In this document: in pieces, positions 24,851 through 63,448 of the stretch | How the letters are laid out: each line of letters begins with the position of its first letter | Numbering within the stretch: position 1 is the first letter of the stretch | UHGV virus genome: UHGV-0010228 | DNA: 64,000 nucleotides | Source of the DNA: a virus | Strand: one strand, 5' to 3' | Position numbers and translations under genes: made by a program | Notes under the pieces: generated by a model | What the model saw: only the letters and a program-made list of their open reading frames with translations | What the model was told of the DNA's origin: nothing | Database searches by the model: none

Positions 24851-24966
24851 ATAAAACGATGATCCGGTGGGGAGCCATCATCATCGTTTTATTTTACCTT
24901 CTGTTTAGTTACACGAACATCACGAGTAAATAAGATAACCGCTTTGGTTATCTTATTTATTTTTTA
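24851..24966 (+). terminator. two tandem stem-loop terminators
   Basis: aaaacgatgatccggtggggagccatcatcatcgtttt then aataagataaccgctttggttatcttatt + T-run. Confidence 0.65.
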
Positions 24967-26169
24967 TACCTGACCGTTCATATATATTGCATGATGTATA
25001 TCCTGACAGTCAGTGAAGAAATTATTGTCAACTGTTGGACGATATTTATTCCAACAGTTTTTAAGTTCTTCTGGAGAAGCCTCATCTGAGAATTTCATTT
25101 GATCATATAATGGATCGAAGCAGTTCAACCAATGTGGATGTTCCCTCTTCCATTTTTCGTATATTTCACCAAAGTCTTTCTTTGCATGATAATCAAATCT
25201 CAACTTATCAGCTTCATAGCGATTTCGTATTTTAAAGTTCTTAAAATACTCTTTACCTTCATCTCGCTCAAGGAAGCAATTTATCTGATTTTCGTTATAA
25301 GTTTTTAACTTGGCAAGTTTCTCACTAAAGATCTTGCTTCGTTCATTTGGATGAATAGAATAAAATTCTAATCTATTTTCCAAATCAGATATTGCCATTC
25401 TACGATATGAAAGCTCAGCACAGACCTGATCATGAGAATCTATTATTACATCAGGTGCAACGACAAGTTTCCGCTTACTCATCATTCTACGCTCTAACGC
25501 TTCGATATCTTCTCCGATTCTATCTGCCCAATACTTTCTAATATGCCATGCAGCTCCGGCTTGACTTTCAGGAGATCTTGGCATAATAATTTCGATTCCC
25601 ATTTCTTTACCCTTACGAGCATATTTAGGAATCTCCAGCTGAGAAGCATCAAGATAATCAGCTGGCTTATAATATGGAGAGAAATTATCAACTAAATATT
25701 TTTCAGCTTCTTCCGGAGTCATATTTAAAAGATCTCCTGAAACTGCTAATGCGAAGAATTTCTCTCTTAATTCCTGAGGCCAATGAGTATAGATACTAGC
25801 CCAATGTTTTTCCCACTTATGCCTATATCTAGCTTTGGTATCAGGAGAAGGATTGTCGTGTAAATAATCTGCACGAATATCATTATTCTCTTCGCGATCA
25901 TATCTAATATTTTCAACAATTCTTCTTACATCCCTTAACTGAGTTGGCATTTCAGGATCAACATACGGTGAATTATGTGCTGACCATTCAGGATCCCTAT
26001 CATACCAACTCTCCGGATCACCTAATACACCATCTTGAAGAATGGGGTCGAGATCATCGATCTCTTTCTGGCTCATAGGTTTATACTTCGGATATTCGGG
26101 ATTAATCGGGGAGTTAATATAGTCAGTATCTTCAATTTCGAACTGACCTAATAATCTACGCCCTTCCAC
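24964..26169 (-). CDS. hypothetical protein (track start is GTG overlapping upstream stop by 22 nt; start uncertain)
   Basis: 401 aa ORF, Trp/acidic-rich; no motif recognised. Confidence 0.5.
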   Translation of the reverse strand: MEGRRLLGQFEIEDTDYINSPINPEYPKYKPMSQKEIDDLDPILQDGVLGDPESWYDRDPEWSAHNSPYVDPEMPTQLRDVRRIVENIRYDREENNDIRADYLHDNPSPDTKARYRHKWEKHWASIYTHWPQELREKFFALAVSGDLLNMTPEEAEKYLVDNFSPYYKPADYLDASQLEIPKYARKGKEMGIEIIMPRSPESQAGAAWHIRKYWADRIGEDIEALERRMMSKRKLVVAPDVIIDSHDQVCAELSYRRMAISDLENRLEFYSIHPNERSKIFSEKLAKLKTYNENQINCFLERDEGKEYFKNFKIRNRYEADKLRFDYHAKKDFGEIYEKWKREHPHWLNCFDPLYDQMKFSDEASPEELKNCWNKYRPTVDNNFFTDCQDIHHAIYMNGQV

Positions 26170-26978
26170 AGGTTTTTGTTCTTTTCTGGATTCTTTGACT
26201 TCTTCTTTGACTTCTTCTTCTTGTCTCTGTCCAGACCTACGGTTTTTAATTTTTTCTTTTTTTTTTCACGCTCAATGCGTTCATCTTCTTCTCTAATCTG
26301 TCTAAGAATTTCTTCTTCTTCAGCTTCGAGATCTCTATTTCTTCTAGCAACTTTGTCTTCTCTCTGCATAGCTGCTAATTCTGATCTAGTTAAAGATGAT
26401 AATCTTTTCATATAATCATCAAATTCATCATCTTCACTATCATCAACCTCCCATATAAAATCTGAAAGAGGTCTTTCCATTATGTCAACATCCTCGTCGT
26501 CATCATAGAAATAATAACCCATAGGATCTCCTTCTTCATCCAGTAAATCTGGATCTTCGAAATCCTCCTCTGGTGCTATATTTTTCCAGTGAGCACGTTT
26601 ATAGAGATGTCTTTTCTTTTCCCCCTTACGAACGTCTTTTAAACCACTGTCGATTCTATCATATTTATGCTTTTTAGCATATCTAATTCTTTCAAGCTTC
26701 TGATTAAGACGCTGAGCCTTTTTAGGATCACGCTTCTTCTTAATCACTTCAGTTGCAATTATGTCATCAGGATCTTCATATTCTTCACTAGTAGATCCAA
26801 AAGGATTTAAACCTCTGAAAATCTTATTGAACCATCCTGATACAAATAAGTATACAGTGCCAATGATTGCACTTAAATTAGCAACGATATTTGCTAATTC
26901 TTTAATGTTATTATTCTTAAAGAAGTTAATAACAGACTTAACAATCAATGCTACAAAATTTGTATTTGCAAATGTCAT
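26148..26978 (-). CDS. N-terminally membrane-anchored, highly charged protein with alternating acidic and Lys-rich blocks
   Basis: AAAGGAGAA RBS; N-terminal TM (IIGTVYLFVSGWF); EEEEILRQIREEDERIEREKKKKKLK...KKKKSKKKSK. Confidence 0.55.
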   Translation of the reverse strand: MTFANTNFVALIVKSVINFFKNNNIKELANIVANLSAIIGTVYLFVSGWFNKIFRGLNPFGSTSEEYEDPDDIIATEVIKKKRDPKKAQRLNQKLERIRYAKKHKYDRIDSGLKDVRKGEKKRHLYKRAHWKNIAPEEDFEDPDLLDEEGDPMGYYFYDDDEDVDIMERPLSDFIWEVDDSEDDEFDDYMKRLSSLTRSELAAMQREDKVARRNRDLEAEEEEILRQIREEDERIEREKKKKKLKTVGLDRDKKKKSKKKSKNPEKNKNLWKGVDY

Positions 26979-43935: not shown

Positions 43936-44817
43936 ATGGGAATATTATCTGATTTTGAATATGAAGTATATGAAGCTGAGGAATCTTCAGTGGTAATATC
44001 TGGAATGAATGCTAAATTTGCTAATAAAATAGCTCATAGAATGCCAGAATTAACTAATGGGGATAAGCTTAAGAAAGAAGCTAAAAAGCTTTATAAAGAT
44101 GATCCAGAAGGTGCAATTGCTAAAATGGAAGAAGCACTTGGCTTGTATAGTAAATTATTAGCTAGAATTAATAAACACGATCAGGATCATCCTAATGCTG
44201 CTAAATCGTCATCAAAAGCATATATTGAATACTGTGTTGATTCATGTAGAGCATATTTAATTAAATGGAAAAATCATGATGAAAGAAAAATAAAAGCGAT
44301 CATTAATGATTTAAGAAATGAAAGAGAATCAATTGGTAAATCAACTGAAAGTTGGTACTCTGATTATGGCTATTTAGATACAGAAGCAACAGAAGGACTA
44401 AAAAATAAGATTCTTACAACGACAGATGATTTTAAGAATAAATTTGCGAAACGCCCATCAGGATTCCGTAGTGATGAAGATGCAGTATGGGCATTCTTAC
44501 TTAGTTCTATAGATCAGCATTCTGTTGATAGTAAAGATCTTCAAACAACATTAGATAGTCTTGATAGAGACATTAATTATTTTTGCTATAAAAAGCAGTT
44601 AACCTGTGCTATGAAAAGATATTCAAATTTAATCGACTCTTCAAATAAACCAACCGGTAAAGTTGTACCATATGCAATACTAAATAAGCATGAAAAACCA
44701 TATATGGTAGTATGTATGTGTAATGGTAAATCTGGCGGATTTGCAATATCATATGTATATTCAGTAATTAATGAGGAGCCTCGTAAATCTCAGCTGTTAA
44801 AATTTTTATATGAATAA
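43936..44817 (+). CDS. hypothetical protein, MGILSDFE-leader family
   Basis: 293 aa; N-terminus MGILSDFEYEV shared with 44864(-), 28511(-) and 59779; internal AKMEEALGLYSK related to the MEGLISK motif. Confidence 0.55.
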   Translation: MGILSDFEYEVYEAEESSVVISGMNAKFANKIAHRMPELTNGDKLKKEAKKLYKDDPEGAIAKMEEALGLYSKLLARINKHDQDHPNAAKSSSKAYIEYCVDSCRAYLIKWKNHDERKIKAIINDLRNERESIGKSTESWYSDYGYLDTEATEGLKNKILTTTDDFKNKFAKRPSGFRSDEDAVWAFLLSSIDQHSVDSKDLQTTLDSLDRDINYFCYKKQLTCAMKRYSNLIDSSNKPTGKVVPYAILNKHEKPYMVVCMCNGKSGGFAISYVYSVINEEPRKSQLLKFLYE

Positions 44818-46840: not shown

Positions 46841-48202
46841 ATGGAAGAAAAAATATTAGAAATGATGGATTCTGCATTTTTTGATTATAGTGTTGGAAAA
46901 TACTCACGTGATACTTTTGAAGAAAGGTTTGCTAAGATTATTTCATCACTACCATTAAAGAAAAAGAAGAATTTCACAGTTTCTATAATAAATGAAAAAA
47001 ATCGTGAACCATTTTTTGGTTTTAGAATATTTCCAATATCATCATCAATGGATGAAATTGCTAATATAATGGCAGATGAAAAGATTTCATTTAAAGAGTT
47101 ATATAAGCGATGGAGTAATATTGATTCATGGTATATGGAAATAGATGCTAACGTATTTAATCGAACTGTGTGTAATTTCACTCCTAAAGAATTAACAGCA
47201 ATGACTTTACACGAAATAGGTCATACTATATATTCAGATAAATTTTTAGTTACATTATATAATGCATTTAAAGAAGCTAGAGTAAGAATGAAGATTGCGG
47301 ATAAATCTTCATTAAAAGTTTTGTATTCATTATATATGGTACCATTATCTATAGGATGTATGCAGAGAGCATTTGTTAACTCTAAAAATGAAGTAGAGAT
47401 CGAATATTACGCGGATAAAGTATTATCAAAATATGGATATACTGATAGTTTATTATCTGCTTTAGATAAAGTAATTAAAGCATATGGATCTCAGAATCAG
47501 AGTAATGCATCAAAAATGAACGATATTATACAGTCAATTCAGTGGTGTGATCTTAATATAACAGATCTTAATAGACGTAAAGAAAAACTTAAGGATGAGT
47601 TATATTATCAATCTTTAAAGAATGAATCTCATTATTTTAAGGCAATATGCTTCCAAATCTTAAATAAGTTTGGAGTAAGATTGAGAGAAAGATACACAGG
47701 AACTGTAGTTGAGTGTACTTTAGATATTATGTATCCGGATTCTAGATATGGTAACGATAAAGTTCCATGTATGGAATATTATAAATTAATATTAGATCCT
47801 GTTGAAAATGGTAAAATACTTAAGGCGTGGGATTTAAATAGATCTCATTATGGAGTAAGCGAAGCTATCGAAGGTATATTTGGTAGTAGAAATAGAAAAA
47901 ATAAAAAGATCAAATTGCCTTCAACTAGACAATTTGATGAAATTGAAGTTCAGATAAATTACAATATAACTAATTATCATGATAAGTTATTCATATTAGA
48001 TCAGATATATGATTTATCTGATCAGATCGATCTTTATGAAGAAATTTATCAGAATGATCCAGTTGTTATGAAACGTGATAGTGGTAAGATATCTGAATAT
48101 CGAAAGAAATTAGCCAAATTAAGAGCTGCGGTATTACAACAGCCATTACCAGATAATGAATTGAAGTTATTTGTAAAATATCCTAAAGGATATGAAGGAT
48201 AG
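46841..48202 (+). CDS. putative zinc metallopeptidase-like protein (HExxH)
   Basis: LTAMTLHEIGHTIYSDKF contains the zincin HExxH signature; TAGGAGG RBS; no other family assignment possible by eye. Confidence 0.55.
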   Translation: MEEKILEMMDSAFFDYSVGKYSRDTFEERFAKIISSLPLKKKKNFTVSIINEKNREPFFGFRIFPISSSMDEIANIMADEKISFKELYKRWSNIDSWYMEIDANVFNRTVCNFTPKELTAMTLHEIGHTIYSDKFLVTLYNAFKEARVRMKIADKSSLKVLYSLYMVPLSIGCMQRAFVNSKNEVEIEYYADKVLSKYGYTDSLLSALDKVIKAYGSQNQSNASKMNDIIQSIQWCDLNITDLNRRKEKLKDELYYQSLKNESHYFKAICFQILNKFGVRLRERYTGTVVECTLDIMYPDSRYGNDKVPCMEYYKLILDPVENGKILKAWDLNRSHYGVSEAIEGIFGSRNRKNKKIKLPSTRQFDEIEVQINYNITNYHDKLFILDQIYDLSDQIDLYEEIYQNDPVVMKRDSGKISEYRKKLAKLRAAVLQQPLPDNELKLFVKYPKGYEG

Positions 48203-48213
48203 TCATTCATTTG

Positions 48214-48267
48214 TTTTTTTTTTGTTATACATTATATTAATATTATATAATATAAGGAGGTATTATA
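48214..48267 (+). promoter_or_regulatory. conserved leader/promoter block of the MFDLYNTLESYNI family (copies also at 54269-54326 +, 50291-50350 -, 56033-56087 -)
   Basis: T-run then TATACATTATATTAATATTATATAATATAAGGAGGTATTATA immediately before ATG; four near-identical copies. Confidence 0.5.
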
Positions 48268-49386
48268 ATGTTTGATTTATATAATACATTAGAATCATAT
48301 AATATAATAGATAATGATTATGCATATGAAGGTATTATAGATAAAGTAAAAAATGTAGGTAGTACTATATGGGGATGGTTAAAGAAAATATGGGAAACTA
48401 TAACGAATAAATTAGGAGAATTAGGTAAAAAGATAAAGAAAGCGTGGGAATCTGTTAAAAACTTTATTAAAAATAGAGGAAATAAATCAATAGAAGAAGA
48501 AGATGAAGAAGAACCATATCCAGAAGAAAATGATGAAGATAATTTATCTACTTCTACATCTAATAAATTTGCTAAAGGTAGAGGTAAGAATATAAATAGA
48601 AGAAGATTAAAAAGTGATGATAAAGAAGAAGATAAGTCAGTAGTTAAAAGTTTACCAGAGCCTGAAAAGACTAGTAGATATAAAAGTCCTAAATTAAAAG
48701 GCGGCAAAGTCACAGTAAATCCAGATCCAACCTCAGATGGAAATAAACCTAGAACTCGTATAGTGCGAGCTGGAAACGGTACAAATTATAATGCAATATT
48801 TCATCCAGATGGGAGTTTGAATAGAGAGTTAAATATAGCTATGAAGTTACTTTTAGAAGTGGCAACTCAGATTAATGTTAAATCTAAATGGTACAAAGAA
48901 TTATTATCAGTATATAGTGCTGAAGCAAAAATTGGTGATAAAGTTGGCGATGCAGAAGATCTTGAAGAAAAAACCAACAAAATGCTGCAAAATTCACCCA
49001 TAAATAATGAAGATATTGACGATTATTTAAATGATCTTGAAAATAAAATTTCAAATAAAGGTTATATTAGATTAACATCTAAAATTCCAGGAGTTGAAAA
49101 ATATTATCAAATGATATATACATCAATTTCGAAATTACAACAGTCAACTGGAGTTATATTGAATCAAATAAATAAAAAACTTGGTGAATTTAAAAGTAAA
49201 CATAGTAAATATGAATTTACGGCTAAGAATAGTAATGGCATAAATATGGAGTATATTCGCTTTAAAGGTAGTAAAAGTGGTTCTGATATTCATAAGAGTA
49301 TCCTTGATAATACTAAAAAACTTTCATCATTATATAGTCGTATCATAAGCATTACTTCTAAAATGATAATATCACCAAGCAAATAG
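48268..49386 (+). CDS. hypothetical protein, MFDLYNTLESYNI-leader family member 1
   Basis: 372 aa; N-terminus MFDLYNTLESYNIIDNDYAYEGIIDKVKNVG shared with 49442, 50388, 54327, 56128; Lys/Glu-rich middle. Confidence 0.6.
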   Translation: MFDLYNTLESYNIIDNDYAYEGIIDKVKNVGSTIWGWLKKIWETITNKLGELGKKIKKAWESVKNFIKNRGNKSIEEEDEEEPYPEENDEDNLSTSTSNKFAKGRGKNINRRRLKSDDKEEDKSVVKSLPEPEKTSRYKSPKLKGGKVTVNPDPTSDGNKPRTRIVRAGNGTNYNAIFHPDGSLNRELNIAMKLLLEVATQINVKSKWYKELLSVYSAEAKIGDKVGDAEDLEEKTNKMLQNSPINNEDIDDYLNDLENKISNKGYIRLTSKIPGVEKYYQMIYTSISKLQQSTGVILNQINKKLGEFKSKHSKYEFTAKNSNGINMEYIRFKGSKSGSDIHKSILDNTKKLSSLYSRIISITSKMIISPSK

Positions 49387-49441: not shown

Positions 49442-50293
49442 TTAATCTACAACTTCAGCTTTGACATCAATTGGTTCATCACTAGTTACTTCTGCTCCAG
49501 ATAGATATTTTACAATATTAACAATTATCTGATAAGATTTTTTTAAATTATTTGAAATATTATTTATATGCTCAGTAGCATATTTATTGAATGCAGCATT
49601 GTAATCTTTAGAATTCTCAACTGTTTTATTGAAGTTAATTGATTGGACTACTTTCATATGAGCATCGCACACAGTATATTGATTGTGTAATACAGTACCA
49701 ATACTTTTTAAATTGTGTTCAGATAGCATATAATCATGTGGGGCCAATTTCAATTGCTCACTAACAACACTATACGCATGATCACATCTATCCTTATATT
49801 TACGAATATCTAACACAATATTTTTACTAGATGATTCACGAAGAGCATCCGATTCAACTTTATTGATAGGTACTTCCCCACCCGTGGATGGGTCTGATGT
49901 TTTTGTGATATATTTACAAATCCCTGCTAAATATTTATCTCCCCCAACTACAATTTTTAAATATTTAGCACTGAGATTAACCAATTTTATTATTTTCTTA
50001 CCAGCGTGAATCTTGTTCATCTGTGTACTAGCAATCTTTCTACCTATTTTAGTATTACTAAGTTTAGATTTTAGCGTGGTAATTCCAGTTTTTAATACAC
50101 TCATAATCTTTTTTATAATACCAGCAATAAAACCAACTGCTCTATCTATTATTTTAGCAATTTTTGATGATGCGATCTTAGTTAATTTACCACTTGCAGC
50201 TCTAGCATCGTTATCAATTTCTAAATACCTTTCATATGCATAATCATTATCTATTATATTATATGATTCTAATGTATTATATAAATCAAACAT
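49442..50293 (-). CDS. hypothetical protein, MFDLYNTLESYNI-leader family member 2
   Basis: 283 aa; MFDLYNTLESYNIIDNDYAYERY...; conserved leader block upstream on minus strand. Confidence 0.6.
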   Translation of the reverse strand: MFDLYNTLESYNIIDNDYAYERYLEIDNDARAASGKLTKIASSKIAKIIDRAVGFIAGIIKKIMSVLKTGITTLKSKLSNTKIGRKIASTQMNKIHAGKKIIKLVNLSAKYLKIVVGGDKYLAGICKYITKTSDPSTGGEVPINKVESDALRESSSKNIVLDIRKYKDRCDHAYSVVSEQLKLAPHDYMLSEHNLKSIGTVLHNQYTVCDAHMKVVQSINFNKTVENSKDYNAAFNKYATEHINNISNNLKKSYQIIVNIVKYLSGAEVTSDEPIDVKAEVVD

Positions 50294-50349
50294 TATAATA
50301 CCTCCTTATATTATATATAATATTAATATAATGTATAATAAAAAAAAAA

Positions 50350-50387: not shown

Positions 50388-51086
50388 CTAAGCTAATAAC
50401 CTAGAAGGATCCTTAGTACCACCAGTTATAATAACCATTGACTTACTAAGGAATGAAATTCCGGCAGTAATTGATTTTTTAATATATCCGATATATGCAG
50501 TTAAGTTATGACTATCATTTGACTCATTGTATGAACGCTTAGCCTGAACAGCTTTTGTTAAAGTACTTTCAATTGTAGAATCTAAGCTACTAAGAGTCTG
50601 GATACCACTTGAAATTGCAGCTGCAAACTTATCTAAACGTGCAGGTGAATATACATTATTAGCAGTTCTCTTACCAACTTTTTCTCCTAATTCATTCATT
50701 GAGGTTATGTAATTAGAAATTTTATCTCCATAATCTTTTGCATTATCCGCAAAATTCTTACCAGACTTTAATCTACCACTAACAGCCTTAATAGAACCAG
50801 AAATTAACTTTACACCTTTAAGTGACATCTCAACATACTTAATTGGTGCTTTATCATTAATCTTTTCCTGAATCTTAGTTCCGATCTTAGTACTCTTAAG
50901 CTTATTGCTTAATTTGCTAAATTTTTCCTTTAATCCGTTAATTCTGTCTCTGAACCATTTCATTACTGCGGCAACAACTTTATTACTTTTAATTGCAGAA
51001 CCTGCATTAGAAAGTTTATCTTTAATTCCTTCTTCTGCAAGATCGATCTTATAAGATTCTAAAGTTTCAATTACATCGAACATCAT
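50388..51086 (-). CDS. hypothetical protein, divergent member of MFDLYNTLESYNI family (MMFDVIETLESYKIDLAEEGIKDK)
   Basis: 232 aa, AAAGGAGG RBS. Confidence 0.55.
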   Translation of the reverse strand: MMFDVIETLESYKIDLAEEGIKDKLSNAGSAIKSNKVVAAVMKWFRDRINGLKEKFSKLSNKLKSTKIGTKIQEKINDKAPIKYVEMSLKGVKLISGSIKAVSGRLKSGKNFADNAKDYGDKISNYITSMNELGEKVGKRTANNVYSPARLDKFAAAISSGIQTLSSLDSTIESTLTKAVQAKRSYNESNDSHNLTAYIGYIKKSITAGISFLSKSMVIITGGTKDPSRLLA

Positions 51087-54278: not shown

Positions 54279-54326
54279 CATATACATTATATTAATTATA
54301 ATTTATAGAAAGGAGTATATTATATA

Positions 54327-54896
54327 ATGTTTGATCTATATAATACACTTGTTGCATATGAGGGATTATTAAAGAATGCATATAATAGTTATAAAACTAA
54401 TATAAACAATGCAAATCTTATGCGAAAAATCGAGAAAACTATTGAAAAGTCATCTGAGTTTTATTTGAAGTTTATTGGTGAGGGTGATGATAAAACTAAA
54501 GAGGAAGCTGCTAATTTTTTTGAAAAGTGGGCACAATTATGTTACTCCAATACGATTAAATTTAATAAATCAATATTTTTAAAAGGATATGTAAATAAAT
54601 ATGAGTATTTACTAAAGGGTGGATATGCTGAACGATATGGATTAACATCTGAAACCCAATTAAATCCGGATAATCCCATGATGCAAGATATATTAAATGA
54701 TGCTTATCTTGGAATTATTGAAAAGCTATCATATAAAGGTCAACTTGTATATCTCATGGGCACTCCAGATAACTATATTTATTACTTTACTGATGATAAA
54801 GGAAATTTTGTCATGAAATATAATGATGAAATGTTGGATGAAATTATAAAGTACTATCAGAATAATATTGATGAGTATAATGCAAAGTTCAAATAA
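54327..54896 (+). CDS. hypothetical protein, MFDLYNTL-leader family member (MFDLYNTLVAYEGLLKN)
   Basis: 189 aa; conserved leader block upstream. Confidence 0.55.
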   Translation: MFDLYNTLVAYEGLLKNAYNSYKTNINNANLMRKIEKTIEKSSEFYLKFIGEGDDKTKEEAANFFEKWAQLCYSNTIKFNKSIFLKGYVNKYEYLLKGGYAERYGLTSETQLNPDNPMMQDILNDAYLGIIEKLSYKGQLVYLMGTPDNYIYYFTDDKGNFVMKYNDEMLDEIIKYYQNNIDEYNAKFK

Positions 54897-54910
54897 AGGA
54901 GGTATTATAT

Positions 54911-55405
54911 ATGAATGATATAATAGTAATGGAAGGATTAATTTCTAAAATGAGAAATCGTTTAAAATTGAAAAAGATTAAAAAGAATTCTGCACCTTAT
55001 AAAGAAATAACTCATGATGAATTTATAAAAAATTATTTAAATAAAATTAAAAAATGCCAAAATTTAATGTGGACAAATATGATGAAATTAAAATCGAAGT
55101 ATCCTATGATAACTAAAATGATTTCTAAGCGTAGTGATAATGAAATGATAGTTCCGGTAAATGATGTTCATATAAACACTTATGTGTATTTAATAGATTA
55201 TGATGGATCAAATGTTGAATCACATGAGAAGCAATATTCAAATTTTGATAGATCTGAATTAGAACCAGCTCTATCAGAAATTGCTAAGGAATGTGTTGAT
55301 AAAATATTTGGTAATGATTCAAATATTGGTTATGATGAAGGTGGAGATTATAAAGAAGTCTGCTATGGAATTGTATTTAGAGATACTTTTATACATGTAA
55401 ATTAA
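54911..55405 (+). CDS. hypothetical protein, MEGLI-leader family (MNDIIVMEGLISK)
   Basis: 164 aa, AAGGAGGTATTAT RBS 14 nt after previous stop. Confidence 0.55.
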   Translation: MNDIIVMEGLISKMRNRLKLKKIKKNSAPYKEITHDEFIKNYLNKIKKCQNLMWTNMMKLKSKYPMITKMISKRSDNEMIVPVNDVHINTYVYLIDYDGSNVESHEKQYSNFDRSELEPALSEIAKECVDKIFGNDSNIGYDEGGDYKEVCYGIVFRDTFIHVN

Positions 55406-55410
55406 TAATA

Positions 55411-55448
55411 TATAACGTTTAGTGATATTTATCACTAAACGTTATATA
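55411..55448. terminator. bidirectional terminator
   Basis: atataacgtttagtgatatttatcactaaacgttatat. Confidence 0.7.
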
Positions 55449-55456
55449 TTATTAAT

Positions 55457-56032
55457 TTAGTTTCTTTTTCCATATAAGATCTCGGACAATTCATCTGAAC
55501 CCATATTCGGAATTTGAATCACAAGAGGGCCACCATCCCAATCTCCACCATATTCGTATTTCATATTATCGATACCATATTTATCAATTGCCGATTCAAT
55601 AATCATATCAATTGCTTTCCACGTCTGATTATATCTAGGATCATCGCCCCATTCTCGAACATTTATAGATTTATCATATTTTAGTATTTCATAAATGTCA
55701 TAATCTATAATGGTATATTCAATATTATTGTCATATGTTGATAATACATTTTCGTTTTCGACATATCCAACTAATTTAAATATATATTTAGCTTCTGGGT
55801 ATTTCTTTATAAGATTATTATATTCTCTTTTAACTTCATTATATATCTTAATAAATATAGGTTTATATTTAGATCTAAATTCATCTAAAGATATATTTTT
55901 AATATTATTAGATTTAGAATTATTATTAATATATCTAGATTTAGTCTGATTATTAGTAGCGTAAGCCTTATTTTTATTTATTTTATCTCTTAATCTCTTT
56001 ATTAATCCTTCCATTACTATTATATCATTCAT
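55457..56032 (-). CDS. hypothetical protein, MEGLI-leader family (MNDIIVMEGLIKR)
   Basis: 191 aa; first 10 residues identical to 54911 product; conserved leader block upstream. Confidence 0.55.
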   Translation of the reverse strand: MNDIIVMEGLIKRLRDKINKNKAYATNNQTKSRYINNNSKSNNIKNISLDEFRSKYKPIFIKIYNEVKREYNNLIKKYPEAKYIFKLVGYVENENVLSTYDNNIEYTIIDYDIYEILKYDKSINVREWGDDPRYNQTWKAIDMIIESAIDKYGIDNMKYEYGGDWDGGPLVIQIPNMGSDELSEILYGKRN

Positions 56033-56087
56033 ATATAATACCTCCTTATATTATATATAATATTAATATAATGTATAATAAAAAAAC

Positions 56088-56116
56088 AAGTGAATGACTA
56101 ATATTAGTCATTCACT
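56088..56116 (-). terminator. rho-independent terminator for minus-strand gene
   Basis: aagtgaatgactaatattagtcattcact preceded by A-run on + strand. Confidence 0.65.
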
Positions 56117-56127
56117 ATTATTAACTA

Positions 56128-56979
56128 TTATATTGCCATCATCTTTGCAATTTCATCTGGGTTAAGAATTTTAATTTTAGTCATAGTCGTAAGTGTCCAT
56201 TTACATAAATTTGAAATTTGTGCGGTTATATTTTTTAGCGCTTTAGTATATTCATCCGTTAATTCATGAATATTCTCAAATTTAGTTACTCGATTTTCAA
56301 TCACTTTAAATTCATATACACATTTCATTATATTTGTATATACAGCTTTATACTCATCGAGTGAATCGACTAAATCCACCTCAAGAGTAAAAGTGTCAAC
56401 TTCATCAAGAGCATTATTAAGTCTGTTAATAATTACTGGAGCTGACTTTGTATCATAATGAATAAGATAGTCTCTTACATCAGCTTCAAACTTTCCAGTT
56501 TTATATAATTCATTGGGATTATCTAAAAATTTTACATAATTTCGGGTATATTGAAGAGTTTCTCTTAGCCATTTATTTGTCTGTTTAAGTTCATACTTTA
56601 TTTTATCAGTCAAAGTTTTAATTTTTTCTTTCTCTTCTTTTCGAGTTCTTTCCACTTCATCAACTATATTACGTCTCTTTCTGTTATTTACTCTTTTTTG
56701 TTCATTCGGTTTATTATCTTCATTACCTCTAGTTTCACTCTCATTCATTTTTTCATTCGTCTTACCTTTCATATTCTTTATCATTAAATATACTTTCTTT
56801 ATCTTTCTACCTAATAATATAAATCCATTCTTTATTCCTTCCCATATCTTCTTTATAACAGACCATATACCTTTACCTACATTCTTTACTTTATCTATGA
56901 TACCTTCATAAGAGGGTTCTAATTCTCCCCCCCCCCCAATTATATTATATGATTCTAATGTATTATATAAATCAAACAT
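56128..56979 (-). CDS. hypothetical protein, MFDLYNTLESYNI-leader family member with homopolymeric Gly-encoding G11 tract
   Basis: 283 aa; MFDLYNTLESYNIIGGGGELEPSYEGIIDKVKNVGKGIW; the GGGG is encoded by an 11-nt C run on + strand (56927-56937). Confidence 0.55.
   Translation of the reverse strand: MFDLYNTLESYNIIGGGGELEPSYEGIIDKVKNVGKGIWSVIKKIWEGIKNGFILLGRKIKKVYLMIKNMKGKTNEKMNESETRGNEDNKPNEQKRVNNRKRRNIVDEVERTRKEEKEKIKTLTDKIKYELKQTNKWLRETLQYTRNYVKFLDNPNELYKTGKFEADVRDYLIHYDTKSAPVIINRLNNALDEVDTFTLEVDLVDSLDEYKAVYTNIMKCVYEFKVIENRVTKFENIHELTDEYTKALKNITAQISNLCKWTLTTMTKIKILNPDEIAKMMAI
56927..56937. repeat. 11-nt homopolymeric C/G tract inside coding sequence
   Basis: ctccccccccccccaat; the only long G/C homopolymer in the AT-rich window. 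Confidence 0.9.
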
Positions 56980-56991
56980 TATAATACCTCC

Positions 56992-57849
56992 TTAGAGATT
57001 CTTCATGAAGTCCATAATTTCACGATTATATTTTAATTCTGGCTTTACAAAGATTCTACCTTCATCAGTTCTCATTGTAATCATATTAGAAGATCTATCA
57101 TATGCAACAGATTCTAGAGCTGGATTCATCTCATCAATAACCCTATTAACTCTTTCAGACTTACTTAATACTATATCAGTAAATGATTCCATGACAGTTT
57201 CGAATTTATTTTTAGATACAATATTCTTAACTGGAATATCCATGTCCATATATGCATTAGAATGTGATGGTAAGTATACTCTATCGTAGCAAACCAATCT
57301 ACCAGGACCCATAACATCTATTGTGCCATCAGGGTTTTTTCTCTGAGGTACTAACGATCTAGCAGAAAATGCTCCTCTAATGCCTTGTAATATATTTCTC
57401 ATAAATTTATATCCAGGAGATCCAACACCTTCATCAAGCGTCTCTACAACACCATGGAGTTCTTTACCTCTCCACTCTAATGATTTAATAATATGAGAGC
57501 AATTATTAGGATCTATATTAGCAATTCTCTCCAATGAAACTTCACCAGTTGTTGGAATTGGATGTCCTGCTTCGCCTGGCCATCCACCTGCTTTAGTTAA
57601 GAATTCCTGTACGAATTCCTGAGCTAACATAGTTCTTACATGATCTGCATTCCAAAGTCTTCTATTTCTATTTCTTCCATAGAAATCCTGTAAGCAAGTT
57701 GAGAATCTTAAGTAATTAAGTCCATTTTCATTTTCAACATGTTTGAGTATTTCTATATTATCATTCTGTGGCATAGCAGCTTCCATTACCACATAATAAT
57801 CTAAATAACGTTCATCATTAGGATTAAATTTCGGCATAATGATAAACAC
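56992..57849 (-). CDS. prohead core protease (T4 gp21-like serine protease)
   Basis: WPGEAGHPIPTTGE ~ T4 gp21 LLGELDHPAD (catalytic His); FSARSLVPQRKNPDGTIDVMGPGRLVCYDRV ~ gp21 GFSLRGIGKEVRNEDGTINKQLIQMVCYDAV (catalytic Ser region); start codon uncertain (track start GTG). Confidence 0.75.
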   Translation of the reverse strand: MFIIMPKFNPNDERYLDYYVVMEAAMPQNDNIEILKHVENENGLNYLRFSTCLQDFYGRNRNRRLWNADHVRTMLAQEFVQEFLTKAGGWPGEAGHPIPTTGEVSLERIANIDPNNCSHIIKSLEWRGKELHGVVETLDEGVGSPGYKFMRNILQGIRGAFSARSLVPQRKNPDGTIDVMGPGRLVCYDRVYLPSHSNAYMDMDIPVKNIVSKNKFETVMESFTDIVLSKSERVNRVIDEMNPALESVAYDRSSNMITMRTDEGRIFVKPELKYNREIMDFMKNL

Positions 57850-57952
57850 CGTCCTTTCTTTTTTGAATTATAGCATTGTTAATCCATAAGAATATAGAGA
57901 TTTAAACCATTAAATAAATCTAAAATAATAAAGAAAGGTGGGATAAAATCGA

Positions 57953-59761
57953 ATGACACCTTATAATAAACAACCAGAATTTTCTCTGGATGATAGTGAT
58001 GTGTTAGATAAATTAATAGATTATTGTACGAAGGATACCTCTAACCTAAATTTAAAAAATGATTTCTTTAATAGGGTTTATGATATTCTTCTTAAAGCAA
58101 CGCCATCATATAATTCATCTATATGCTCTTCCAGAAATATAGATTTTATATTATGGCTATATCGATTTGAAAAGGTTGGTAATCCCAATAGTACTCCGAA
58201 TTTATTAAATTTATATTTTAATAAAATTTACGAATTTCATTTAGACTATGGATTACAAAAATCAGTAGATTTAATAAATTCATTTTGTAGACGTTCAATA
58301 GATGAAACATCTAATCTTAAAAGTGAAGAGATAAGATTTTATGCACTGCTTTTCATACTATATTATATATATTCATTATATGATGAGCAGGAAAATAATT
58401 TATACATAGAAACTTTAATAAAAACTTTTATGGATAATCCACATACGCAAGATGTTATGTTTATATATATTGAGGATATATATATCCCGAATGATCGCAT
58501 TATTAATTATACTAATTTAAATCAGTACTTATTCCATAATGGTATCATATTTAAATCAGTAGAGAATTTAACAATAGAAAATCTTATGAAAAACACATTA
58601 GACGGATCTATTAATAATATAGATCCAGAGTATAATAAAATATATACTTTATTATGTATGAAAATTTGTGATATATTTAATTCTCGAAATCATATTCTTA
58701 AATTCATTGATGATGCAATAGATAATTTTTTAATATATCGATCTAGGATTAAGATTAATAATGCTAAATATGAAAATTTTACAACATCTGATTATGCAAC
58801 TGGATATCTTGCAAGTACTATGGATGCTAGAATTGCCAGTTATTTGAAAACTGCAAATATGTATAATGATGATATCTATAAAAAATCTTCATTAGAAAGT
58901 TTCATATCAGATTTTCATTATAACATAATTCCAGAATTTAAATCATATATAAAAGATGATTATAAAGATAAGGAAAATTATATCATAACATCTTTCATAT
59001 ATGAAAATTTAAAAGCTTTTGATTTGAGAGATAATTCAGAAATTAAAGAATTTTTTGATGAATATCTGCCATCAATGGAGTGTACCATTCCATTACCAGC
59101 ATATGAAGCAACTAATGATGATATAGATCCAGAACCAAGTAGTGAGGCCCCGGTTGATGAAGATGATTTAGAAACTCCAACATCAAATGGTAATTATAGA
59201 AGAAAGAAATTTAAAAAGGATAAATTGAAAAAATCAGTTGCTAGTAAAACAATGGGTGCAGAAAAGAAAATATATAGTGCTTATCGTCAGTATAAAGAGA
59301 AAGAAACTGCTGTAGATAATCAGTTAGTGAAAATGACTAATGTTATGAAAGATAAGTTTAAGGGTAATGTTAGAGAAGAAATCATTGGTGGTAAAGTATG
59401 GACACCAATAACTATACTTAAAAAAGCTCTAGGAACTGCAGCGATATTTTCCTTTTCAAAGATAGGTGGTATATTAGCATTTATAGTTGGGCATTATACT
59501 AAGAGAAAAGTAAAGAATAAAGAACGAAAAAAGATAATTCTTGAATTGGAATTAGAAATTAAAATGTTAGAAGAAAAAATAGAAGATGCTAAAGGCGATG
59601 GAAACCGTCAGGCTAAATATGCAATGATGCGCACTAAAGCTGAATTGGAAAATGCTGTTGAAAAGATTAAATTTGGTCTAGAAGCTGATGATAAAGCTAT
59701 ACAGGCAGGAAAGAATGTAATAAAAGGTGGAGTAAATGCTGCACTTTCAAATTTAAAATAA
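57953..59761 (+). CDS. hypothetical protein with C-terminal coiled-coil and hydrophobic segment (possible head assembly/scaffold-associated)
   Basis: 602 aa, AAAGGTGGG RBS; C-terminal KAELENAVEKIKFGLEADDKAIQAGK; GTAAIFSFSKIGGILAFIVG hydrophobic stretch. Confidence 0.55.
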   Translation: MTPYNKQPEFSLDDSDVLDKLIDYCTKDTSNLNLKNDFFNRVYDILLKATPSYNSSICSSRNIDFILWLYRFEKVGNPNSTPNLLNLYFNKIYEFHLDYGLQKSVDLINSFCRRSIDETSNLKSEEIRFYALLFILYYIYSLYDEQENNLYIETLIKTFMDNPHTQDVMFIYIEDIYIPNDRIINYTNLNQYLFHNGIIFKSVENLTIENLMKNTLDGSINNIDPEYNKIYTLLCMKICDIFNSRNHILKFIDDAIDNFLIYRSRIKINNAKYENFTTSDYATGYLASTMDARIASYLKTANMYNDDIYKKSSLESFISDFHYNIIPEFKSYIKDDYKDKENYIITSFIYENLKAFDLRDNSEIKEFFDEYLPSMECTIPLPAYEATNDDIDPEPSSEAPVDEDDLETPTSNGNYRRKKFKKDKLKKSVASKTMGAEKKIYSAYRQYKEKETAVDNQLVKMTNVMKDKFKGNVREEIIGGKVWTPITILKKALGTAAIFSFSKIGGILAFIVGHYTKRKVKNKERKKIILELELEIKMLEEKIEDAKGDGNRQAKYAMMRTKAELENAVEKIKFGLEADDKAIQAGKNVIKGGVNAALSNLK

Positions 59762-59778
59762 GAAAGGAGAAAATATAA

Positions 59779-60495
59779 ATGGGTTTAGTTAATGATTTTC
59801 TCTTTACTTACGCATTAGAAGCTGATGATATTACAGGAGAAGCTCAGGCTGGTGCTAGACAAATTGCCGGTGGACCAAATCCTGCCGGTGGACCAGGTGC
59901 TAATGCAAATGTTGGAGATGAACCAGATGACATATCTAAAACAGATGATATATTTGGTACTGCAGGATCAGATGATGATCCAATAAATGGAAATACTAAT
60001 AATGCTCAGAATTTAAATCAGAATCCACAAAATAATATGAATAATAATGATCCATTTGGTAATGATTCTAATAATATGGGAAATAATGATCCCAATGATG
60101 GTGGATTTGGTGATACAAATAATTCTTCGATGGATGATGGATTTGGAGAAAATAATGAGCAGGATAAATCCGATCCTCCATATTATGATAAGAATAAGTT
60201 AAAAAATAATATGCTGTATTTATACAATTTAACAAATTCATCAAATGATGCTATTGTAGAATTAAGATCAAAATTGAACGATCCTAGTAGTATCAAAGTA
60301 TGTAATATGGTAAATTCTAATTTAACTGCTCTTAGCGATTGTATATATGAAACAATTACTGATAAAATAGCTAATGCTACATATCAAGATATGCTTAGAG
60401 AGTATATATCATTTAAACGTATATATGACCTATGTACGGAAATAATGAATAAACATTTTGATAATGCGATTAAAGATAAGAAAAAGAAAAAATAA
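59779..60495 (+). CDS. low-complexity Asn/Gly/Asp-rich (disordered) protein with MGLVNDF leader
   Basis: 238 aa, AAAGGAGAAAA RBS; MGLVNDFLFTYALEADDITGEA...; NNMNNNDPFGNDSNNMGNNDPNDGGFG. Confidence 0.5.
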   Translation: MGLVNDFLFTYALEADDITGEAQAGARQIAGGPNPAGGPGANANVGDEPDDISKTDDIFGTAGSDDDPINGNTNNAQNLNQNPQNNMNNNDPFGNDSNNMGNNDPNDGGFGDTNNSSMDDGFGENNEQDKSDPPYYDKNKLKNNMLYLYNLTNSSNDAIVELRSKLNDPSSIKVCNMVNSNLTALSDCIYETITDKIANATYQDMLREYISFKRIYDLCTEIMNKHFDNAIKDKKKKK

Positions 60496-60502
60496 CGCAT
60501 CG

Positions 60503-60535
60503 TTAATCCACGTTATTTTAAAACGTGGATTAATA
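60503..60535 (+). terminator. rho-independent terminator
   Basis: ttaatccacgttattttaaaacgtggattaa. Confidence 0.6.
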
Positions 60536-60600
60536 CTATTAACAATAAAATAAAATTATTTAGCAAATTAATAGTTAAAAATAAAAGGAGGAAACTCTCA

Positions 60601-62358
60601 ATGTTAGATAAGACAATTTATAATGACGTTGTAGGTAATGCTCAGTATGCAGATTCAGATGCTGGGTTTAAGTCAGAAGTTAGATCAATCTTCGAAGCAT
60701 ATGCTAATGAAGGTGTTAACCTGACTGACAATATCGGATCTGTAATTTCAGATGCACATCTTAGAGAAGACTTCATAGGTTCTATCTGCGAATCACTCGC
60801 AGCTTCACCTCTCTTCACTAATGCTGATGCTGCAAATGCACCTTTCTATAACAACTATGGTGCAAGAGTTGAGCAGTTACTTAGCAACACACTTAAGTCT
60901 GTAGCTGCAGAATCTGTAATGTATGGTTATGCTCCTATCGTTGCATACAACCCATTCTTCCTCAAGAAGCAGTGGATCGATTGTATCTTCAAGGATGTCC
61001 TCATGACAGAAATTCCTAAGACTCCAGTTATCAATCTCGGTTTCGAGAGAAGATATCTTAAGGATCTTGATGGTGAAAGATATCCACTTCCAGAAGCTCT
61101 CTATGATGATGAAATCGTAAAGAAGCTCATGGATGCATCAACTGGTCTTAACCTTACAGAAGAAGCAATTGATATTAATGATTGTAAGCAGCTTTATCTT
61201 ATAGATCAGAAGTATATCCCAGGCGTTAATGTAAATGATAAGTCAGTAGAAATCACTCCAAATATTTGTGTTTGGAAGGTTATGCTTGCTGGTGCAGATG
61301 GCGAAATCGAACTTCCGGTAAACATGACAGTTGATGTTACTACTCATAACTTCATTAATACTTCAATCAAGTTTGATGTAAAGGATGAAACTACTGGTGA
61401 AGTTAAGGAAACAATTGAAGATCAGCTCGTTGGTCATATGAACTTCAGAGATGCTAAGCTCACTCTTATGTCAACAACTGGTAAGGTTACAAAGGTATTC
61501 CTTAGAGGTAAAATTGCAAATAGATGGAACCAGAGATCACTGGATGTAGAAAGAACTGTAGAACACATTCAGAAGACAATGCCAGAATCTGGTCCAAGAC
61601 TGAACTCTTCAATCACTGTTGAAGATGCTGCAGATGCACTTGCTCTTCAGAATATTGACCAGATCTCAGATAACATCAATATCATGGGTGCTACTCTGGC
61701 TAACCTGGAAGATGCTGAAATTAATATGTTCCTTAAGAACTCATTTGAAGCTCAGAAGAAGGTTGCTGAAACAGGCGTTCTTTACAATGAACTTGGTGAT
61801 AATGTAATGATCGCTGAAGGTAACTTCAATACTCTTCCATATGAAACATTCAATGGTAGAATTTCTGAATGGCAGAAGGATGCAAGAGAATACTTCGAAA
61901 GAATGCTCTCTGCTCTTAAGATTAAGCTCCGTTCTCAGAATATGCTCTTCGTTGCAGTTTCACATCCAAATACTGTTAGATATCTCCAGGATGGTATCAA
62001 CTGGGTATTCTCAGATGACACTCAGATCGGCGGTGTAAGACTTAACTATAACTTTGGTATTTACACAACTGCACAGGATAGAGTTCATATCGTAACAACT
62101 CAGAGAATGGCTGAATCTGAAGGTATTAGATTCATTGGTATCCCTCTGACTCAGGAACTCATCACATTCAAGCACTATAAGTACAATGTAATTATTGATA
62201 GAGGATACAGAAACCCTCTGACTCCTCTCACTCCAAATATTATGGCTACTCAGAGAACTCTCACATTTGAAATATTCCCAGTTCAGGGTGTAATGACAAT
62301 TGAGGGTAGAGAACTCTTCTCACCTGATAGCCTTAAGAGAAAGACTGTTACGCCCTAA
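60601..62358 (+). CDS. major capsid protein candidate (T4 gp23-like), with predicted N-terminal propeptide
   Basis: AAAAGGAGGAAA RBS; elevated GC3/codon bias typical of a highly expressed gene; KYNVIIDRGYRNPLTPLTP ~ T4 gp23 KYRVYIDQYA...ALTPL and VMYGYAPIVAYNPFFL ~ gp23 VMGMVRRAIPNLIAF; AYANE|GVN fits protease site. Confidence 0.6.
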   Translation: MLDKTIYNDVVGNAQYADSDAGFKSEVRSIFEAYANEGVNLTDNIGSVISDAHLREDFIGSICESLAASPLFTNADAANAPFYNNYGARVEQLLSNTLKSVAAESVMYGYAPIVAYNPFFLKKQWIDCIFKDVLMTEIPKTPVINLGFERRYLKDLDGERYPLPEALYDDEIVKKLMDASTGLNLTEEAIDINDCKQLYLIDQKYIPGVNVNDKSVEITPNICVWKVMLAGADGEIELPVNMTVDVTTHNFINTSIKFDVKDETTGEVKETIEDQLVGHMNFRDAKLTLMSTTGKVTKVFLRGKIANRWNQRSLDVERTVEHIQKTMPESGPRLNSSITVEDAADALALQNIDQISDNINIMGATLANLEDAEINMFLKNSFEAQKKVAETGVLYNELGDNVMIAEGNFNTLPYETFNGRISEWQKDAREYFERMLSALKIKLRSQNMLFVAVSHPNTVRYLQDGINWVFSDDTQIGGVRLNYNFGIYTTAQDRVHIVTTQRMAESEGIRFIGIPLTQELITFKHYKYNVIIDRGYRNPLTPLTPNIMATQRTLTFEIFPVQGVMTIEGRELFSPDSLKRKTVTP

Positions 62359-62359
62359 C
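62353..62359 (+). promoter_or_regulatory. candidate programmed +1 ribosomal frameshift site CCC_UAA_C
   Basis: last sense codon CCC (Pro) followed by UAA; +1 frame reads CCU AAC and is open for 364 codons beginning with a Pro/Thr linker. Confidence 0.5.
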
Positions 62360-63448
62360 CCGCCAGTAGACCCAGATCCAACGCCAAGCAACCCAGATAC
62401 TTCTGCAATGGTTGATGGTACAGAATACGGTACTGTACAGGAGGCGTTAGATGCAGTGGAAGCTGGCAAACCAGTAACCGTAAAGCTCTTCAAGGATACT
62501 GAAACTCCAGTTACAGTAAAGAAGGGTACAAATGTAACACTTGATCTCAATGATACTCTTATGACTGGTACTACAGATGCTGCTATTACAGTAGAAGATG
62601 GTGCCGAATTAACAATTAAGGGTACAGGTATAATTGATGCTGGTACAGCACCTAAGAAAGCGGCAATTGTAAACAAGGGTACAATGTCTATTCTCGGTGG
62701 TACAATTACTAGATCAGAAGAAACTGGTACTGCTTCAAACGTATCAGGAAAGAATAGCTACTATGCTATATATAATACAGGTACTATCAAAGAAATTGGT
62801 AAGGATGCCGTAATCACAAATACTTCAGGTTATTCTTCACTCATTTGCTGTATAGGTACAGCAGATAAGCCTGCTAGAATTGATAAGATTACTGGCGGTA
62901 GATTTACTAATAACTTCGTAGTACTTAAGATGGATGATTATTCATCTCTCGGAGAAATTAGTGGCGGTACATTCATTAATAACCAGGATGACTTTAATAA
63001 GGGTCCATCTGCTACAATCTTAGCATATGGTCCAATTGATAAGATCAGTGGTGGTACATTTGAATGTAAGGCTGAAACACCTGTAAAGGTATTTGGTTAC
63101 TATGACACATCTGCAAAGGTTTGTCAGACAGGTGTAATTAAGGAAATAACTGGTGGTACATTCAAGACTGGTCTCATGGAAACATGTGGATCATTATCTG
63201 CATCAGTACATCCGGTTAGCATTAATGATATTGATAAGTTTACAGACTTACCATCTGTTAAATCAATTACTGGTGGTACATTCATTGGTAATGTATTTAC
63301 AGAAAACGGTGGTGTTATTGAAGGTATTGCTGGAGGTTCATTCACTCTTAGAGATGCTGAGTCTGAAAAGGCTATGGAAGCATTCTTAAAGGACGGATGT
63401 AAACTTTCAGGTGGTAACGACAATAAGTGGACTGTTGCTCTCGGATAA
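62354..63448 (+). CDS. +1-frame C-terminal extension of the capsid protein: Pro/Thr-rich linker plus GGTF-repeat (beta-helix-like) domain
   Basis: frame +1 relative to 60601 ORF; no ATG/RBS of its own (track start is TTG inside upstream gene); begins NPPVDPDPTPSNPDTS; six repeats of [IS]-[TSA]-GG-[TRS]-F (KITGGRF, EISGGTF, KISGGTF, EITGGTF, SITGGTF, GIAGGSF). Confidence 0.5.
   Translation, partial: PNPPVDPDPTPSNPDTSAMVDGTEYGTVQEALDAVEAGKPVTVKLFKDTETPVTVKKGTNVTLDLNDTLMTGTTDAAITVEDGAELTIKGTGIIDAGTAPKKAAIVNKGTMSILGGTITRSEETGTASNVSGKNSYYAIYNTGTIKEIGKDAVITNTSGYSSLICCIGTADKPARIDKITGGRFTNNFVVLKMDDYSSLGEISGGTFINNQDDFNKGPSATILAYGPIDKISGGTFECKAETPVKVFGYYDTSAKVCQTGVIKEITGGTFKTGLMETCGSLSASVHPVSINDIDKFTDLPSVKSITGGTFIGNVFTENGGVIEGIAGGSFTLRDAESEKAMEAFLKDGCKLSGGNDNKWTVALG

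Follow-up and report, generated by a model that had tools for sequence, protein, structure and literature searches.

Can a single uninterrupted run of guanines switch a phage gene on and off? The question is raised by a locus in UHGV virus genome UHGV-0010228, from which we analysed a stretch of 64,000 nucleotides (nt), hereafter the window. The window is from an uncultured gut jumbo phage, and in it a run of 11 cytosines on the plus strand (56927-56937) forms a G11 tract on the coding strand of a gene of 283 amino acids (aa), 56128..56979(-). A preliminary description of this DNA had put the tract forward as a possible contingency switch working by slipped-strand mispairing, and our results partly support that proposal: G11 is probably a site at which slippage turns the gene on and off.

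A G11 tract decides the reading frame of a leader-tagged gene

The features on which the question turns are the following.

56927..56937, minus strand: G11 homopolymer (C11 on the plus strand), codons 15-18 (GGG GGG GGG GGa) of the 283-aa gene
56905..56979, minus strand: 25-codon leader, MFDLYNTLESYNII-GGGGELEPS-YE, opening with a conserved motif, followed by a variable linker that bears the tract, and ending in a putative protease site, S-Y-E|G
56128..56979, minus strand: 283-aa accessory gene, its body predicted to be all-helical
56987..56991, minus strand: ribosome-binding site (RBS) GGAGG, 7 nt upstream of the ATG

On the plus strand the run is embedded in TTCTCCCCCCCCCCCAATT, with TAATTCT-C11-AATT at 56920-56940, and the minus strand reads ATT GGG GGG GGG GGA GAA, that is I-G-G-G-G-E, at codons 14-19 of the open reading frame (ORF). 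The sequence agrees with the preliminary description, which had placed an 11-nt C run encoding four glycines in a genome of roughly 30% G+C; the G+C content of the window is 29.4%. The next longest runs in the window are of five C and six G, leaving C11 as the sole G/C run longer than six, and dinucleotide-preserving shuffles of the window yield a G9 pattern 0.02 times on average, none of 100 reaching the observed count. The tract is thus uninterrupted, lies inside an ORF and goes far beyond compositional expectation. Its codons are unusual as well: GGG is the least used glycine codon in the window (43 of 878, or 4.9%, with three of the 43 inside the tract), and GGT and GGA together account for 87% of the phage's glycine codons. 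Other homopolymers of at least 10 nt in the window are a single A10 run and intergenic T/A runs beside terminator hairpins. A role as a G-quadruplex or hairpin was considered from the sequence and set aside: a quadruplex needs four G tracts where there is a single G11, and any pairing would be limited to GGG/CCC.

Changing the tract length in silico gave full-length products (281-284 aa) for G5, G8, G11 and G14, and products of 18-25 aa for every other length, with the alternative frames after the tract terminating within 4-9 codons. Gain or loss of a single unit therefore toggles between full-length and truncated product: G10 stops at 19 aa and G12 at 24 aa, bearing out the earlier claim that changes of one nucleotide would shift the frame just past the shared leader.

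The tract lies in the variable linker of a shared leader

The leader is found on several genes of the window, four of which are listed here; L numbers denote related loci and P numbers proteins.

48268..49386, plus strand: leader paralogue with a DNDYA linker, whose orthologue in L002/L003/L031/L032 has an out-of-frame G9
49442..50293, minus strand: leader paralogue with a DNDYA linker, whose orthologue in L037, a relative at about 85% average nucleotide identity (ANI), has an in-frame G11
50388..51086, minus strand: more distant leader-bearing paralogue, MMFDVIETLESYKIDLAEE|G
54327..54896, plus strand: paralogue in which the leader is short, MFDLYNTLVAYE|G

The MFDLYNTLESYNII leader opens the genes starting at 48268(+), 50293(-) and 56979(-), with looser forms at 54327(+) and 51086(-). 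Alignment gives a layout of MFDLYNTLESYNII-linker-SYE|G in which the G tract falls within the length-variable linker, and it places GGGGELEPS where the sister gene at 48268 has DNDYA, as had been described. The conserved motif of the leader is M-F-D-x-x-x-T-L-E-S-Y-x-I, followed by a linker of 0-9 residues and then [A/S]-x-E|G. Distant homologues recovered by an exhaustive profile search keep M-[FY]-[DN]-x3-TLESY-x-I, a linker of 0-9 residues and [A/S]-x-E-G; a profile search with leader-only sequences returned only a single match. The DND linker itself varies by in-frame indels (DNDYA, DNNDYA, DNDDYA and DNNEYA). All close copies have the same RBS and the same first 42 nt (14 codons) of leader DNA, while the bodies that follow are unalignable.

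Downstream of the tract, at a distance of 5 residues, comes the putative cleavage site; cutting there would give the 283-aa protein a mature N-terminus at G26 (GIIDKVK...). As a sequence match, AYE|G, SYE|G, AEE|G, AIE|G or ASE|G occurs at residues 12-25 of all family members. The prohead proteases of SPN3US and phiKZ recognise an A-x-E cleavage motif and remove N-terminal propeptides of 20-24 residues from some head proteins (PMC10052503), and the capsid-targeting sequences of T4 sit on diverse, poorly conserved internal proteins (PMC9026906). Because one short leader here precedes diverse, poorly conserved proteins near a protease, in parallel with the T4 internal proteins, we infer that it is a propeptide which targets its cargo to the capsid and is cleaved at an [A/S]-x-E site of the phiKZ/SPN3US type. 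The likeness to T4 IPI-III and to phiKZ-SPN3US covers a short N-terminal leader common to unrelated, poorly conserved proteins near the prohead protease, its x-E ending before a small residue, and a cargo repertoire that differs between close relatives (PMC9026906; PMC10052503). Three features expected of a processed capsid-targeting leader are present: a common N-terminus on unrelated proteins, an [A/S]-x-E ending of the A/S/G-x-E kind recognised in phiKZ-like phages and a location in a head module with a protease. The leader sequence has no detectable homology to T4 capsid-targeting sequences. To our knowledge, no homopolymer switch has been described in T4 capsid-targeting or phiKZ/SPN3US leaders.

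Tract length varies at the same leader site among relatives

Relatives were found through protein look-ups in ENA and Logan assemblies; they come from human gut metagenomes, including several Hadza samples, and were compared as consensus contigs. They comprise a strain at about 99% ANI (L002, L003, L031, L032 and L004-7), the relative at about 85% ANI (L037) and smaller contigs (L001, L008, L030 and L033-35). The G9 allele was read from ERZ27287442, ERZ27287438, ERZ28614144 and ERZ4559413, and the G11 of the 50293-type gene from ERZ27270443. Searches of GenBank phages with the region and the 283-aa protein (megablast, tblastn) gave no match, only the capsid protein matching the AR9/PBS1/phiR1-37 group, and exact-pattern scans for the leader DNA in IMG/VR, JGI metagenomes and GTDB genomes returned nothing or chance matches only. 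The alleles recovered at the leader site were as follows.

Window 56979: ATT-G11-AGAATTAGAACCC, in frame, 283-aa body
L037: AT-G11-AATTAGAACCC, in frame, orthologue of window 50293 (P0012)
L008: ATA-G7-AATTAGAACCC, in frame, P0007 body
L004-7: ATA-GGGGGTG-AATTAGAACCC (interrupted G5), in frame, P0006 body
L002/L003/L031/L032: ATT-G9-ATTAGAACCC, out of frame, orthologue of window 48268

About 100 kb of related loci contain no further G/C run of at least 7 nt, and the in-frame alleles encode GG, GGG or GGGG. With G9 the leader runs into a stop after 22 codons, whereas G8 or G11 would bring it back into frame with the body; the 346-aa body of this allele is called by gene finders from a TTG within the tract (MGGGLEPSYEG..., P0005 and P0008), but a leaderless product from this start is unlikely because no Shine-Dalgarno sequence precedes the TTG.

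The preliminary description had suggested looking for tract-length polymorphism in homologous genes. Such polymorphism exists at the same leader site (G5(T)G, G7, G9 and G11) and includes an OFF length, the G9 that splits leader from body in four assemblies, although the alleles sit on different paralogues and length is fixed per lineage. The tract is thus neither absent from relatives nor a one-off insertion, and its proposed role as a switch gains a natural OFF allele while losing ground to the fixity of length within each lineage. The identical 283-aa protein is recorded on three NCBI and ENA contigs of up to 256.5 kb, in frame in all of them, so the in-frame length is not specific to a single assembly; a look-up of this exact protein and of its 191-aa neighbour in the contig index gave no match.

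The G/ELEPS linker module is found on five different cargo genes, and four of these five cargo types carry the DND(D/N)YA module elsewhere. Swapping of the two modules on the same cargo types indicates that the leader segment has been exchanged between paralogues, and by this comparison of sequences the tract-bearing leader is demonstrably mobile among them.

The 283-aa gene is an accessory cassette in the head module

The neighbourhood of the gene is described by three further features.

56992..57849, minus strand: prohead (head maturation) protease, PHROG 3014 at E=1e-10, with Pfam S77 and S80 below threshold
56089..56116, minus strand: intrinsic-terminator-like hairpin, a 12-bp stem then TGTTTTTTT, directly past the 283-aa gene
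L001 1-360 and L030 5512-5700: orthologue of the 283-aa gene, split at A6

The major capsid protein is encoded at 60601..62358 (PHROG 20655 at 4.6e-39; 20-25% identity to the AR9, PBS1 and phiR1-37 capsids). The 283-aa gene starts 12 nt past the stop codon of the protease and lacks its own promoter motif; it is therefore likely co-transcribed with the protease. It forms a cassette placed exactly between the stop codon of the protease and the protease terminator. In L002, L031 and L037 the gene is missing: the terminator lies directly 3' of the protease in the first two, and a family-B gene takes that position in L037. In L001 and L030 it is frameshifted, the orthologue being 96% identical, with a DNNDYA leader and the frameshift at A6 (A5 would be in frame), the same in two samples. 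Searches of Pfam, PHROG and PDB sequences with the 283-aa protein gave no significant match.

Variation in this region is not confined to the cassette. The L002 copy of the 48268-type gene stands out by a synonymous divergence (pS) of 0.0375 between neighbours identical to those of the window, a divergent island consistent with import by recombination. The protease (window 56992-57837) forms another such island against L002, with pS of 0.14 and a ratio of non-synonymous to synonymous divergence (pN/pS) of 0.03. Divergent islands such as these (48268-49386 and the protease) among near-identical genes indicate that the strains are mosaic, with recent recombination involving more distant lineages.

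The interval between a 696-aa gene and the protease was also observed to be a hot spot for cassettes (window 54283-56992 versus L002 15938-16612 versus L037 4210-6100), with four genes in the window (189, 164, 191 and 283 aa) and one in the 99% ANI strain.

A probable slippage-prone on/off site, its precedents and the evidence against it

On balance we read G11 as a slippage-prone ON/OFF mutational site for an accessory, probably capsid-packaged protein. The shared leader would work like a T4 capsid-targeting sequence or the phiKZ/SPN3US propeptides and would be removed by the neighbouring protease. Glycine codons could have accumulated in the linker because it is discarded and tolerates changes in length, and the run may have grown by replication slippage together with flanking A-to-G changes, from GGGGGTG to G7, then G8/9 and finally G11. 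At lengths of 5, 8, 11 and 14 the full-length protein would be made, and since its extra glycines would leave with the leader, in-frame changes in length should be phenotypically silent; at other lengths translation would terminate after 18-25 residues and no cargo would be produced. Such OFF variants would leave downstream genes unaffected, because a terminator and a promoter follow the 283-aa gene. Gene conversion through the identical promoter, RBS and leader cassette could then move the G-bearing module between paralogues. Two further possibilities were considered, translational restart within the gene and polarity on the gene downstream; the terminator and promoter separate the two genes.

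PolyG and polyC contingency loci are well known in bacteria, in surface genes of Campylobacter, Haemophilus and Neisseria. The present tract resembles them in its position near the 5' end, in the truncated OFF products and in a low-GC genome that otherwise avoids G runs, but here the genome is viral, the polymerase is that of a phage, and one locus is involved rather than a set of phase-variable genes. Closer at hand are the Campylobacter phages of the genus Fletchervirus, whose receptor-binding genes carry polyG tracts of 7-11 nt (Sorensen et al. 2021, Cell Rep 35:109214, as cited in PMC12633550 and PMC10877375). According to these citing accounts, an uninterrupted G run of 7-11 nt in a structural ORF of an AT-rich phage genome is shared with our locus, the frame-shifting lengths create subpopulations, and hypermutation is shown experimentally there, whereas at G11 a high slippage rate is to be expected by analogy. 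The gene concerned also differs: where Fletchervirus has a receptor-binding protein, this jumbo phage has an accessory head-module gene that carries the leader. Since that leader is presumably cleaved off together with the tract, in-frame changes should be silent here.

A second precedent is provided by the homopolymer contingency loci of T2 and T4, such as agt and rIIA (Gomez, Barrick and Waters 2025 preprint, PMC12633550), where a homopolymer in a non-essential host-interaction gene gives reversible null alleles by changes of +/-1, and for which bet-hedging against host defences is proposed there. The T-even loci are A runs of 6-9 nt, common in these AT-rich genomes, whereas here we have a single G11 that is a gross compositional outlier and is known from consensus sequence. 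Our expectation that slippage at G11 would be frequent and reversible, and that it might bring a bet-hedging benefit, is an analogy drawn from the Fletchervirus polyG tracts and the T-even contingency loci (PMC12633550). The mechanism as such is already known, from the homopolymer frameshift switches of bacteria, the Fletchervirus receptor-binding genes and the A runs of T2/T4 (PMC12633550); what appears to be new is its occurrence in an internal-head-type accessory gene of a jumbo phage, its placement in the linker of a removable propeptide, and a leader that is mobile among paralogues.

Several observations weigh against an on/off role for the tract in a packaged protein. Tract length is invariant within lineages: the window protein has G11 on its three contigs, P0012 has G11 in three protein alleles, and G9 is present in all four of its contigs, which represent nearly one strain (99.9-99.97% identical). 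Among the relatives recovered, the G9 gene never occurs in an ON form (G8 or G11). The 48268-type gene has a pN/pS of about 0.87 between the window and L002, with 0.03-0.5 for neighbouring genes, pointing to weak constraint. Other leader-tagged genes are broken at ordinary short runs or truncated, as expected from decay of a redundant family: besides the A6 of L001 and L030, the family-B gene beside the protease (L037 4223-4796) is split at A7 (A6 would be in frame), a P0003-type gene is split into P0020 and P0022 at TGGGGATGG by a G5 one nucleotide longer than the in-frame G4, and C-terminal fragments of 207 aa of the 48268 type (P0013, P0025 and P0026) are present on contigs of 235 kb and 74 kb. 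As to packaging, the AlphaFold model of the 283-aa protein is a low-confidence all-helical one (predicted local distance difference test score of 47.5), and the threshold of Pfam PF12699 phiKZ_IP (27 bits) is not reached by the 283-aa protein (14.5) or by 50388..51086 (20.7), matches of any score being found for two of nine leader-family members. The 283-aa protein is thus not a demonstrated phiKZ_IP member.

Competing explanations for the tract

The leader-tagged genes are accessory, fast-evolving and often inactivated, and since they are also broken at ordinary short runs, the OFF alleles may reflect gene decay and not a selected switch. Neutral expansion in the tolerant linker of decaying paralogues is therefore a serious rival, and although we hold it to be the less probable account it deserves real weight. 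It takes the tract to be an incidental microsatellite, arising by neutral expansion of glycine codons in a linker that can be of any length, on redundant paralogues that are gained, swapped and lost, so that OFF alleles are ordinary pseudogenes. Linker length does vary in all homologues and the 283-aa gene is dispensable; the breaks at unremarkable runs (A6, A7 and the G5 of P0020/P0022), the 207-aa fragments, the pN/pS of about 0.87, the fixation of the G9 OFF allele in the four assemblies of its strain and, more generally, of one length per lineage (G9 and both G11 tracts) all fit this account. It is less able to explain why tracts of at least nine G persist at one site in three lineages diverged by up to 15% and on three different genes, when these AT-rich loci have no other G/C run of at least 7 nt, or why the frame is kept in three of four uninterrupted tracts (four of five leader alleles if the interrupted G5 is included). 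The two accounts differ only in whether selection acts on the tract, and both entail ON/OFF heterogeneity.

Homopolymers may also act during expression, as in programmed -1 frameshifting at dnaX-type A AAA AAG sites and in transcriptional slippage. Common to these cases and our locus is a homopolymer in an ORF at which a change of frame decides the product, but programmed sites have a conserved out-of-frame arrangement and here most alleles are in frame. If stuttering of RNA polymerase or +1 ribosomal slippage at the tract set the dose of full-length protein, the G9 allele would still be weakly expressed, and its identity in four assemblies and two protein alleles with an intact 346-codon body ORF would be explained; the A10 run at 26257-26266 is a separate candidate slippery site in the window. 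We nevertheless regard programmed recoding at G11 as improbable. Only the G9 allele is out of frame, with G5(T)G, G7 and both G11 in frame, and four in-frame alleles out of five leave no conserved out-of-frame architecture. Moreover, no stimulatory element was identified at the tract, the G9 body ORF is near-neutral relative to the window allele, and we know of no description of transcriptional slippage on G runs in this phage group.

Still less probable, in our judgement, is that the glycines form a functional spacer tuning access of the protease to S-Y-E|G, or packaging, with the homopolymer as a by-product of selection for glycine. The position of the tract 5 residues from the putative cleavage site and the two to four glycines of every in-frame allele would agree with such a spacer, but the run is built of GGG although the phage prefers GGT and GGA, and selection for glycine would not demand a pure G run; sister leaders, moreover, have DNDYA or no spacer. 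Least likely of all is a sequencing or assembly artefact, such as the poly-G of two-colour chemistry or a miscalled homopolymer. In its favour, contigs frequently break off in the shared leader: L001 begins within it, L036 stops within it about 50 nt before the tract, and the protease look-up retrieved a Logan contig from ERR7738254, 100% identical to window 56965-62837, that terminates inside the leader, with no second independent contig spanning the tract DNA of the window in this comparison. Yet both flanks are homologous coding sequence, G11 keeps the 283-codon ORF open, the identical protein is on three NCBI/ENA contigs, and G tracts are present at the same site in independent assemblies from different assemblers and studies.

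What a hypermutable tract would mean

If the tract is hypermutable, as the slippage-driven on/off reading supposes, it would extend phage contingency loci to jumbo phages, and contingency itself to a repertoire of capsid-packaged and probably injected proteins. The T4 anti-restriction protein IPI* belongs to this packaged and injected class. It would also represent a design in which the switch lies in a discarded leader, so that only frame matters and not length; recombination through the shared leader could transfer it from gene to gene. Existing metagenomic reads would then be expected to be heterogeneous in length at this one defined site. The leader-tagged cargo genes would be candidates for ejected host-takeover or anti-defence proteins of this uncultured gut phage.

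A bolder version, which we consider doubtful, is that the late promoter, RBS, capsid-targeting leader and long poly-G linker constitute a portable switch cassette, maintained by this genus of gut jumbo phages and moved by gene conversion among genes for packaged or ejected cargo. Each of the three genomes sampled has one long tract, and no two have it in the same gene: the window has it in the 283-aa type, L002 in the 48268 type and L037 in the 50293 type. Were such a cassette real, the virion population would hedge over which injected accessory protein is carried, and in-frame drift in length would cost nothing, as the tract would lie in the part removed by the protease.

Further observations on neighbouring genes

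The motif TTATACATTATATTAATA occurs in the window at 48225-48242(+), 50321-50338(-), 54280-54297(+) and 56061-56078(-), and matches with at most two mismatches number seven against 0.33 expected. It lies about 25-30 nt upstream of leader-tagged starts, after a hairpin and T-run, and precedes most leader copies; it is possibly the late promoter of the phage.

Two more leader families were observed: MNDIIVME|G at 54911(+) and 56032(-), on proteins of 164 and 191 aa, and MGILSDFE at 43936(+) and 45454(-), on proteins of 293 and 196 aa. A start similar to the latter, MGLVNDF, is found on a 238-aa protein at 59779(+), upstream of the capsid gene. These families suggest several classes of protease-processed or capsid-targeted leaders.

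Located among the leader-tagged genes are a 453-aa protein (46841-48202(+)) with a HEIGH motif (HExxH, zinc-metalloprotease-like) and a 428-aa protein (45470-46756(-)) with an N-terminal P-loop, GLSGSGKST, and weak kinase/AAA matches; both could be packaged effectors.

The A10 run at 26257-26266 is the only other in-gene homopolymer of at least 10 nt in the window and reads GAA AAA AAA AAG AAA on the coding strand, containing the dnaX-type heptamer A AAA AAG. It lies in the region of ORFs 26148..26978(-) and 24964..26169(-), of 276 and 401 aa, which have no match in Pfam or PHROG. The -1 frame opens exactly at A10 and runs stop-free into the 401-aa ORF, making the run a candidate site of programmed -1 frameshifting or transcriptional slippage that would fuse the two ORFs.

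Finally, a perfect palindrome with a 20-bp stem (55405-55452) lies between the convergent genes 54911..55405(+) and 55457..56032(-) and is likely a bidirectional terminator.

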